A stretch of 22,174 nt of DNA from a virus (Duplodnaviria > Heunggongvirae > Uroviricota > Caudoviricetes), in the IMG/VR virus record IMGVR_UViG_2869924733_000011, positions 1 through 22,174 of that record. The stretch is one strand, 5' to 3'. Every line of letters begins with the position of its first letter. Position 1 is the stretch's first letter. A model generated the notes under the pieces. That model worked only from the letters and a program-made list of their open reading frames with translations. It searched no databases and was not told where the DNA came from. This document shows, piece after piece, positions 764 to 2,053 of this stretch. Both the position numbers and the translations under genes were made by a program.

Positions 764-832
764 TAAACACGTAAAATCGGTAACGGCTGGAAATCATTCA
801 ATACTCGTACTATCGAAAGTTTACCAGCCAAC

Positions 833-875
833 CGCAGCACGTCCTGCATACGTCGTGTCTGCGTTTTTTCTTTTT
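833..875 (+). terminator. Rho-independent terminator downstream of dinI
   Basis: Imperfect hairpin cgcagcacg...cgtcgtgtctgcg (833-863) followed by TTTTTTCTTTTT (864-875). Confidence 0.45.
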
Positions 876-878
876 CGC

Positions 879-1148
879 TTACATTGTGTCTGGTTCTTCC
901 GGCCACTCAATATCAGGTGCAGTTGATGTATCAACACGGTTCAGCAACACCCGATACTTCTTCCAGGCTTCCAGCAACGAGTTTTCTTCCTCCGTTGCGA
1001 TCTCCAGATCTACAGCATCCTGAAGTGGCGCAATATGCTCACTGAATTCCTGGATGTAGAACTGTGTGGTGACGGTCTTCCAGCCATTCGGCTCCTGCTG
1101 TATCGAAGCATACCAGGCTATTTCAATATCGCTATGCTGCGGCAGCAT
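879..1148 (-). pseudogene. Tail fibre assembly protein (Tfa) C-terminal remnant
   Basis: The 89-aa ORF ends [51 protein letters not shown], nearly identical to the conserved C-terminus of lambda-type Tfa. The N-terminal two thirds of a normal ~190-aa Tfa are absent and no tail fibre gene lies upstream. Confidence 0.65.
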
Positions 1149-1204
1149 TTAACCCCTTGTAATTCATCGCCATAATTGATTTAATTCACAAATAAAACTA
1201 TAAT

Positions 1205-1873
1205 ATGGTGAAATTAATGAAAAAAAACACAGATGATGGGGCTAAAATTTACACACCACTTACCCTAAAGCTTTATGACTGGTGGGTTTTGGGAGTATCA
1301 AATCGGCTTGCATGGGGATGTCCTACAAAGGAACACCTTCTTCCACACTTTCTGGAACATTTAGGTAACAACCATCTGGATATTGGTGTTGGAACTGGGT
1401 TTTACCTTACTCACGTACCTGAGAGTAGTCTGATATCTTTAATGGATTTGAACGAGGCTAGCCTGAACGCGGCATCTACAAGGGCTGGGGAATCAAAAAT
1501 TAAACATAAAATTAGCCATGATGTTTTTGAACCTTATCCCGCGGCGTTACATGGTCAATTTGATTCCATTTCCATGTTTTACCTTCTTCACTGCCTGCCT
1601 GGAAATATATCTACAAAAAGCTGTGTAATACGCAATGCGGCGCAGGCCTTAACTGATGATGGAACTCTATACGGAGCCACAATTCTTGGCGATGGAGTTG
1701 TGCACAATAGCTTCGGTCAAAAACTGATGCGCATTTACAATCAGAAAGGCATCTTTTCAAACACAAAAGATTCCGAAGAAGGCTTAACACATATACTCTC
1801 AGAGCATTTCGAGAATGTTAAAACCAAGGTTCAAGGTACTGTAGTAATGTTTTCCGCTTCAGGGAAAAAATAG
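1205..1873 (+). CDS. Class I SAM-dependent methyltransferase (low-GC cargo gene)
   Basis: 222-aa ORF with LDIGVGTGFY, a Rossmann-type SAM-binding motif I (GxGxG). Composition is visibly AT-rich relative to the flanking phage tail genes. Substrate unknown. Confidence 0.7.
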   Translation: MVKLMKKNTDDGAKIYTPLTLKLYDWWVLGVSNRLAWGCPTKEHLLPHFLEHLGNNHLDIGVGTGFYLTHVPESSLISLMDLNEASLNAASTRAGESKIKHKISHDVFEPYPAALHGQFDSISMFYLLHCLPGNISTKSCVIRNAAQALTDDGTLYGATILGDGVVHNSFGQKLMRIYNQKGIFSNTKDSEEGLTHILSEHFENVKTKVQGTVVMFSASGKK

Positions 1874-2053
1874 CATCCAACCGCAGCACGTTCTTGCTTA
1901 AGACGTGCTACGGTTTCCTTTACGATTTGGGGTTGCGACTTTACCTCTATTGATAATGCATTCCGGCAGAACGTTCAAATATGAACGTACGATATTTAAC
2001 TAACCGAAAAACAAAATATAGCACAGGCGAGACATTTACCATCTAAGAAAATA

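Follow-up and report, generated by a model that had tools for sequence, protein, structure and literature searches.

Why does the same 15-nt sequence stand on both sides of a low-GC methyltransferase gene in a prophage, directly beside an ipaH gene? The locus belongs to a 22,174-nt stretch of caudoviral DNA (IMG/VR record IMGVR_UViG_2869924733_000011, positions 1 to 22,174; the whole stretch is called the window). A first-pass annotation had taken the repeat as the boundary of a horizontally acquired cassette, which comprised a tfa remnant (tfa') and an S-adenosylmethionine (SAM)-dependent methyltransferase gene and was inserted next to the ipaH module. According to our analysis a conserved hairpin of ~37 nt is very likely present in two paralogous copies, each with one of the 15-mers as its 5′ arm. 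In lambdoid prophages of Escherichia coli and Shigella this hairpin separates a cargo gene, which may be dinI-like, the methyltransferase gene or another, from the convergent 3′ end of tfa. With good confidence the locus is explained as a ybcY-type moron bracketed by two copies of this dinI/tfa hairpin; at the second copy an ipaH block has been joined on. Copy 1 would end the SOS-regulated dinI unit and copy 2 the methyltransferase moron. Conserved within otherwise mosaic DNA, the hairpins may have provided crossover points for homologous recombination, by which dinI, methyltransferase and ipaH modules were stacked. Comparison of the sequences establishes the module boundaries and a long repeat in the relatives; it also shows that hairpin 2 is chimeric and represents the 3′ stem-loop of the small RNA (sRNA) CssrB.

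The repeated hairpin and its relatives

A scan of the whole window for CCAACCGCAGCACGT revealed exact copies at two sites on the plus strand (Table 1), in direct orientation and 1049 bp apart. No third copy is present in the window with two mismatches allowed, and 0.03 matches were expected by chance. Gap-free extension of the 15-mer is weak and yields 31 nt (815-845 versus 1864-1894) with 81% identity. Each copy lies in a sequence that can fold. For hairpin 1 a free energy of -13.5 kcal/mol was calculated (z -1.5); its stem is interrupted, and a simple terminator scan gave no call at this position. Hairpin 2 reached -18.4 kcal/mol on the plus strand (z -3.3), where its tail is U-rich but interrupted, and -24.4 kcal/mol on the minus strand (z -5.0), where a U-run is found 9 nt past the stem. 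We infer intrinsic termination at both: hairpin 1 would stop transcription of dinI, and hairpin 2 that of the methyltransferase gene on the plus strand and of CssrB on the minus strand.

An IMG/VR scan for the exact 15-mer resulted in at least 120 loci, with 125 motif sites among the matches listed. About 80 of these 125 sites belong to one hairpin family, while the other sites are unrelated chance matches. Members of the family share a constant 5′ arm, a loop consisting of TCTTGCTTAAG, TCTTGCATAAG, CCTGCATACG or TCTTGCATACG and a 3′ arm ..GTG(N)CTGCGG, followed by variable tails, and graded variants link hairpin 1 to hairpin 2. In an alignment of 23 distinct variants 93.5% of the cells are paired, with compensatory change at two pairs.

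Typically the hairpin follows dinI-like genes and adjoins the tfa 3′ end, whether or not a methyltransferase gene is present. Many of the listed loci have the order methyltransferase, hairpin and full tfa of 194-201 aa, and two (L006, L008) have dinI, hairpin and full-length tfa without a methyltransferase gene. Mixed combinations were found as well: dinI is joined to the variant usual after the methyltransferase gene, the hairpin-2 variant, in L015, L095 and L107, the methyltransferase gene to another variant in L109, and a gene for a 252-aa protein precedes the hairpin in L075 and L105. Further neighbours in the listed loci are invertases, membrane proteins, putative defence genes and, downstream, ykgJ-like genes. 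Pin-like invertases adjoin the hairpin in a few loci; the 15-mer is presumably no invertase crossover site, as it is unlike the gix/hix sites. An integron attC-like element or a miniature inverted-repeat transposable element was also considered and rejected, since neither an integron integrase nor terminal inverted repeats were found.

Beyond the viral records, relatives of window positions 764-880 (3′ flank of dinI and hairpin 1) are present in 5099 of the 5426 complete E. coli genomes, K-12 included. A K-12 derivative carries a hairpin copy with the arms CCGCGGTACGT/ATGTACCGC, in which two double substitutions preserve pairing; the variant of VT1-Sakai is yet another one and likewise shows compensatory changes in its arms. 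In the K-12 derivative this compensated hairpin and a dinI-like pseudogene remnant occupy the ecpE-ykgJ intergenic region (L134 1060-1330) directly upstream of ykgJ, and in VT1-Sakai a ykgJ-like gene follows dinI and hairpin; ykgJ of K-12 may thus be a relic of prophage cargo. Because the same hairpin occurs in many phages without a methyltransferase gene, as well as upstream of ykgJ in K-12, the repeat is not the insertion footprint of a methyltransferase cassette. When related prophages with and without the cassette were compared, the hairpins did lie at module boundaries, as had been anticipated, while the repeat proved to be no mark of an insertion. The motif turns up regardless of the gene, an outcome that the first-pass annotation had itself named as refuting its reading.

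A much longer repeat is preserved in relatives. Where IMG/VR loci include both flanks, the methyltransferase gene is bracketed by a direct repeat that comprises 227 bp with 88-89% identity (12 loci), 170 bp (four loci) or 148 bp (two loci) and is shorter in others; flanking repeats of 148-227 bp with 88-90% identity were counted in 20 loci. In the Shigella/enteroinvasive E. coli (EIEC) type only the hairpin is left of it (44 bp, ~80%). E. coli N47 has the methyltransferase gene, a perfectly paired hairpin 2 and, 40 nt on, a second tfa 3′ end identical to window positions 901-951. Homology of the tfa'-methyltransferase module extends from 809 or 901 to 1913. As the junction between tfa' and the methyltransferase segment (1148/1149) is constant in all relatives and homology always reaches 1913, we conclude that the unit of hairpin, tfa', methyltransferase gene, hairpin and tfa arose once and has been inherited since. 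The repeat of up to 227 bp, which includes hairpin and tfa 3′ end, argues for a leftover of module duplication and not for a target-site duplication. The ancestral flanking repeat would have measured ~230 bp, its right-hand copy being trimmed to the hairpin when the ipaH block recombined in. The tfa' remnant is decaying and carries internal stops in other strains. It also gave a match to Rfam IS009 (922-1125, minus strand of the window, 129 bits). Intact tfa 3′ ends adjoining the methyltransferase gene scored 225-228 bits in DLP12 (L135 4821-5019) and in a phage (L031 2062-2260). The IS009 family seems to describe the coding sequence of tfa and not a separate sRNA.

The methyltransferase gene and its distribution

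The claim of a low-GC, horizontally acquired SAM-dependent methyltransferase gene was borne out: its GC content is 40.8% (GC3 35.9%) compared to 50.3% for the window, promoter-like sites precede the gene and a hairpin follows it. Two sigma-70-like sites (1149-1176 and 1176-1204) lie in the AT-rich upstream region, where the number of such sites is no higher than in shuffled sequence. PHROG 2132 (unknown function) matches residues 5-222 and most homologues have 218 aa; according to this coverage the real start is probably ATG 1217, giving 218 aa.

Pfam matches above the cut-off were obtained for Methyltransf_12, Methyltransf_23, Methyltransf_25 and Methyltransf_11. Motif I, LDIGVGTG (residues 58-65), forms the glycine-rich loop of class I SAM methyltransferases, and D81 supplies the acidic residue that closes strand 2; like Y24, H129, G157 and D189 it does not vary among 85 homologues. 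The AlphaFold2 model (mean predicted local distance difference test score 93.3) has a Rossmann-like seven-stranded fold. The top 50 Foldseek matches are all small-molecule or lipid methyltransferases, among them phosphatidylethanolamine N-methyltransferase, JHAMT, CysG/BelI, phosphoethanolamine methyltransferase, SgvM and NodS. Neither a Pfam DNA-methylase match nor a (D/N/S)PP(Y/F) motif was found in the protein, and no specific NCBIfam or PADLOC family fits it; a defence system was rejected, PADLOC having given just a sub-threshold mad2 match (E 0.003). Considering these fold neighbours, the lack of a DNA-methylase motif and the position of the MxiE box, which is found only downstream, we favour a cytoplasmic small-molecule or lipid enzyme that would be expressed as prophage cargo and would be neither DNA-modifying nor a substrate of the type III secretion system (T3SS).

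In Salmonella and Enterobacter, homologues with 55-70% identity stand alone on the chromosome and not in phage contexts, and their surroundings revealed no informative operon partners. The Enterobacter homologue (L126-L129 5001-5657) has 39% GC versus 51% in its flanks; judging from this composition the family looks foreign in Enterobacter too. A literature search on tail fibre, methyltransferase and moron retrieved nothing specific, and ybcY was mentioned just in passing.

The cassette (1149-1876; at least 80% coverage and at least 95% identity) is present in 3798 of 5426 complete E. coli genomes (70%), with up to four copies each, and in 16 sequenced coliphage records, inducible coliphages included. 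The 3′ end of the methyltransferase gene together with hairpin 2 was detected in 3050 E. coli genomes, nine of which run on into ipaH. In E. coli AST217 a prophage at the same mlrA site carries dinI, tfa', methyltransferase gene, hairpin and a tfa fragment without ipaH and is colinear with the window up to 1909. From these frequencies the methyltransferase module looks old and widely inherited and ipaH looks like the newcomer. Thus, the insertion of the cassette next to the ipaH module, as first proposed, has probably to be read in the reverse direction.

The ipaH junction and neighbouring features

Hairpin 2 of the window combines methyltransferase-type bases at 1880, 1884, 1885, 1898 and 1901 with ipaH-type A1910 and tail. 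The ipaH side is known from 20 IMG/VR loci: 12 are like the window, and eight carry a 571-aa ipaH paralogue without methyltransferase gene and tfa'. In these eight loci the hairpin, CCAGCCGTGGCACGT-TCTTGCATACG-ACGTGCTACGG, is fully paired. The window has a C1884/A1910 mismatch, which results from the meeting of methyltransferase-type C1884 with ipaH-type A1910. The base pattern places the crossover in the shared 8 nt at 1902-1909. As judged from the aligned variants, the sequence thus testifies directly to a recombination event within the hairpin that brought the modules together.

Hairpin 2 is at once the 3′ stem-loop of the known sRNA CssrB, a link that the first-pass annotation had missed. 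Peng, Yang and Jin (2011, PMC3071730) detected cssrB on a northern blot as an RNA of ~180 nt between SF2021 and SF2022 in the orientation -> <- -> and used a predicted rho-independent terminator to define its 3′ end. Judged by where it lies and how it is oriented, the methyltransferase gene would correspond to SF2021. A CssrB paralogue (151.6 bits) is located in front of another ipaH gene (L136). The MxiE box shares 8 nt with the 5′ end of the divergent CssrB as modelled; binding of MxiE could therefore interfere with CssrB transcription and vice versa.

At 99.7% identity the locus was found in a handful of EIEC. IpaHe corresponds to ipaH2022, SF2022 of S. flexneri 301, and is reported as a pseudogene in S. 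flexneri 301 and 2457T (review, PMC9320238). The gene of this type is frameshifted in EIEC CFSAN029787.

Beyond ipaH the window continues with a DUF4376 gene, which is tail-fibre-associated, and with tail fibre genes on the minus strand. Downstream of the DUF4376 gene lies a strong terminator-like hairpin rich in GC (3875-3896, minus strand), and the ipaH-DUF4376 intergenic region contains a second CTGT-N8-ACAG match (3915-3930), which is LexA-box-like. EIEC CFSAN029787 is colinear with window positions 1-5687 at 98.8%; the window has ~2.95 kb extra (5688-8637). In this DNA a tfa truncated at its C-terminus (6136-6558) is followed by another complete tail fibre gene (6561-8693), giving two tail-fibre sets in tandem. 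These are probably a scar of the acquisition of the ipaH block. The tail tip gene J is broken up (9421-14812). Two copies of an IS4-family transposase form a 991-bp inverted repeat (10628-11618 versus 13775-14765, 99.9%), between whose arms lie a J fragment (11733-12317) and a transposase of the IS110 family (12553-13749).

At the left end, the prophage attachment core is located at ~270-289, at the end of the mlrA fragment; the Stx1 phage VT1-Sakai at the same site has annotated yehV' and att core. A promoter-like site (449-478) precedes dinI, and at the homologous place a promoter and an SOS box are annotated in VT1-Sakai. In Shiga toxin (Stx) phages the homology to the dinI module stops at 852-867.

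Table 1 Positions of the features discussed, from left to right in the window
Feature	Position	Strand	Assignment or remark
mlrA (yehV) 5′ host-gene fragment	222-290	+	PGAP truncated coding sequence in identical EIEC locus; coordinates by BLAST
LexA (SOS) box CTGTACATAACTACAG	484-499	+	Upstream of dinI
dinI-like gene, 82 aa	515-763	+	Pfam DinI 1.2e-19; NCBIfam PRK10597; PHROG 189
Conserved dinI 3′ flank	764-827	+	Moves together with hairpin 1; IMG/VR loci match from 747/762
Direct repeat copy 1	828-842	+	5′ arm of hairpin 1
Hairpin 1 and T-run	833-863 and 864-875	+	Intrinsic-terminator-like end of dinI unit
tfa' C-terminal remnant (pseudogene)	879-1148	minus	Pfam Caudo_TAP positions 75-130/131; PHROG 2341; PGAP "missing N-terminus"
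AT-rich upstream region, left edge of low-GC cassette	1149-1204	+	56 nt, 25% GC
Class I SAM-dependent methyltransferase gene, ybcY / PHROG 2132 type	1205-1873	+	Pfam Methyltransf_12/23/25
Direct repeat copy 2	1877-1891	+	5′ arm of hairpin 2; 3 nt after methyltransferase stop codon
Hairpin 2, chimera	1879-1915	both	5′ arm and loop methyltransferase-type; 3′ end and tail ipaH-type
sRNA CssrB (Rfam RF02799)	1882-2061	minus	230.2 bits versus gathering 76; model positions 1-180 (full length)
Exact MxiE box GTATCGTTTTTTTACAG	2054-2070	+	ipaH promoter; consensus from PMC9320238
ipaH (IpaHe / ipaH2022 type), intact, 547 aa	2189-3832	+	Pfam NEL 6e-77, LRR_TTSS; PGAP name ipaHe in 99.7% identical EIEC locus

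Competing explanations and known systems

The 15-mers could alternatively be target-site duplications or att-like cores of a mobile tfa'-methyltransferase cassette. The repeat is indeed exact and direct, and the low-GC DNA ends where copy 2 begins; however, the other low-GC edge is at 1149, 306 bp from copy 1 and with the tfa remnant in between. Neither a recombinase nor a transposase is encoded in or adjoining the unit, the motif is common without the cassette, and the 15 bp are part of a longer conserved hairpin and not a stand-alone repeat. Together with the long imperfect repeat of ~88% identity in relatives this largely refutes the explanation, and we regard it as highly improbable. That two unrelated GC-rich terminator stems merely match by chance would fit their similar composition and the modest stability of hairpin 1; the comparative data refute this, as graded variants connect the hairpins and in relatives the copies lie inside the long homologous repeat, which leaves it practically no probability.

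The methyltransferase had also been suggested to be a second effector or a DNA/RNA modification enzyme. In the rival explanation built on this it would be a second virulence factor, acquired together with ipaH. Neither suggestion found support, and we consider such a role very unlikely. The distribution over 70% of the complete genomes and inducible coliphages is not restricted to T3SS lineages, most carrier strains being neither Shigella nor EIEC, and the ipaH junction is rare among genomes with the methyltransferase 3′ end and hairpin 2. The sole MxiE box within two mismatches in the window lies downstream of the methyltransferase gene past the hairpin, is oriented for ipaH, and none was found upstream. 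The absence of DNA-methylase signatures, the fold neighbours and the stand-alone chromosomal homologues in Salmonella and Enterobacter likewise speak against this role. A further idea, unlikely though somewhat less so, is that the hairpin serves as a dedicated recombination joint at the tail-fibre/att end (e.g. as substrate of a phage single-strand-annealing recombinase) and that the ybcY-type methyltransferase is a lysogenic-conversion enzyme acting on an envelope lipid or a small metabolite. If true, the position would be an integron-like cargo slot for the exchange of dinI, ybcY, ipaH effectors and defence genes.

Some points weigh against the preferred explanation, a ybcY-type moron between two hairpin copies. 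The stability of hairpin 1 is unexceptional, and the common methyltransferase-type hairpin has no U-tract right after the stem on either strand, which makes termination uncertain. The terminator roles follow from sequence and fold, and the 3′ end of CssrB in the source paper was placed by terminator prediction as well. The covariation test was positive but weak; since the IMG/VR sample was picked by the exact 15-mer, its 5′ arm is fixed. Recombination within hairpins is deduced from one clear chimera and the mixed combinations, not from a breakpoint census, and the order in which the modules arrived from frequencies.

All components of the locus are already annotated or published, namely the ybcY-type methyltransferase, PHROG 2132, CssrB, the MxiE box and ipaH2022. 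The locus represents ordinary phage mosaicism and neither a new mobile cassette nor a second Shigella effector; as the methyltransferase has no special link to ipaH, it carries little weight for Shigella virulence. What our analysis adds is the hairpin as a shared module joint and the placement of the methyltransferase-ipaH crossover within 8 nt, a base-level example of prophage cargo being stacked inside a shared terminator hairpin, which CssrB borrows. As one of the commonest cargo genes of E. coli prophages the ybcY-type methyltransferase gene is a reasonable target for a biochemical or lipidomic screen.

Several known systems resemble parts of the locus. One is the DLP12 segment tfaD - ybcY - tfaX - appY - ompT of K-12, the methyltransferase locus being ybcY. 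A position of ybcY beside ompT is given in PMC6854850. The segment has the cassette with 98.8% identity and tfa, hairpin, methyltransferase gene and tfa remnant in the same order and orientation, and phages 2G7b and ev243 are arranged as DLP12, with OmpT and integrase beyond. In a K-12-like laboratory strain the order of the DLP12 remnant is nohD, tfa, methyltransferase, tfa', appY, ompT, envY. Unlike in the window, the methyltransferase gene of this strain is frameshifted; it has appY/ompT on its left instead of dinI/att, and on its right a tfa copy instead of CssrB-ipaH.

The left part corresponds to the dinI-hairpin-ykgJ unit (VT1-Sakai H0001/H0002; remnant upstream of ykgJ in K-12). Att site, promoter, SOS box, dinI and hairpin of VT1-Sakai are the same as in window positions 1-867, and the K-12 ykgJ-side tail TTCTCTTTACGATTT is like the ipaH-side tail of hairpin 2, TTTCCTTTACGATTT. 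The VT1-Sakai/K-12 unit differs by compensatory substitutions in the hairpin arms and by a ykgJ-like gene downstream, where the window has tfa'. The CssrB gene agrees with the published one in its full-length match and in the SF2021/SF2022 context, whereas the CssrB paper (PMC3071730) connects the terminator neither with the methyltransferase nor with the hairpin family of prophages.

In lambdoid prophages effector genes can be situated at the end with the tail fibre genes, as in the exchangeable effector loci of O157. Another effector gene at such a position is sspH1 of Gifsy-3 (PMC9320238). The ipaH gene of the window likewise lies just beyond tail fibre genes and near the prophage end. In contrast, the methyltransferase gene is no effector-locus gene. 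It was probably in this place before ipaH and has a much wider distribution.

Finally, lambdoid phages harbour morons, cargo transcription units of the type described by Hendrix. The methyltransferase unit is like them a single gene with promoter-like sites, a terminator-like hairpin and atypical GC content between conserved phage genes, and it is present or absent among close relatives: the dinI-hairpin-tfa phages as well as VT1-Sakai at the same att site lack it. Unlike a typical moron, the unit in the window carries a duplicated piece of the neighbouring tfa, and its terminator-like hairpin is common to other cargo genes.

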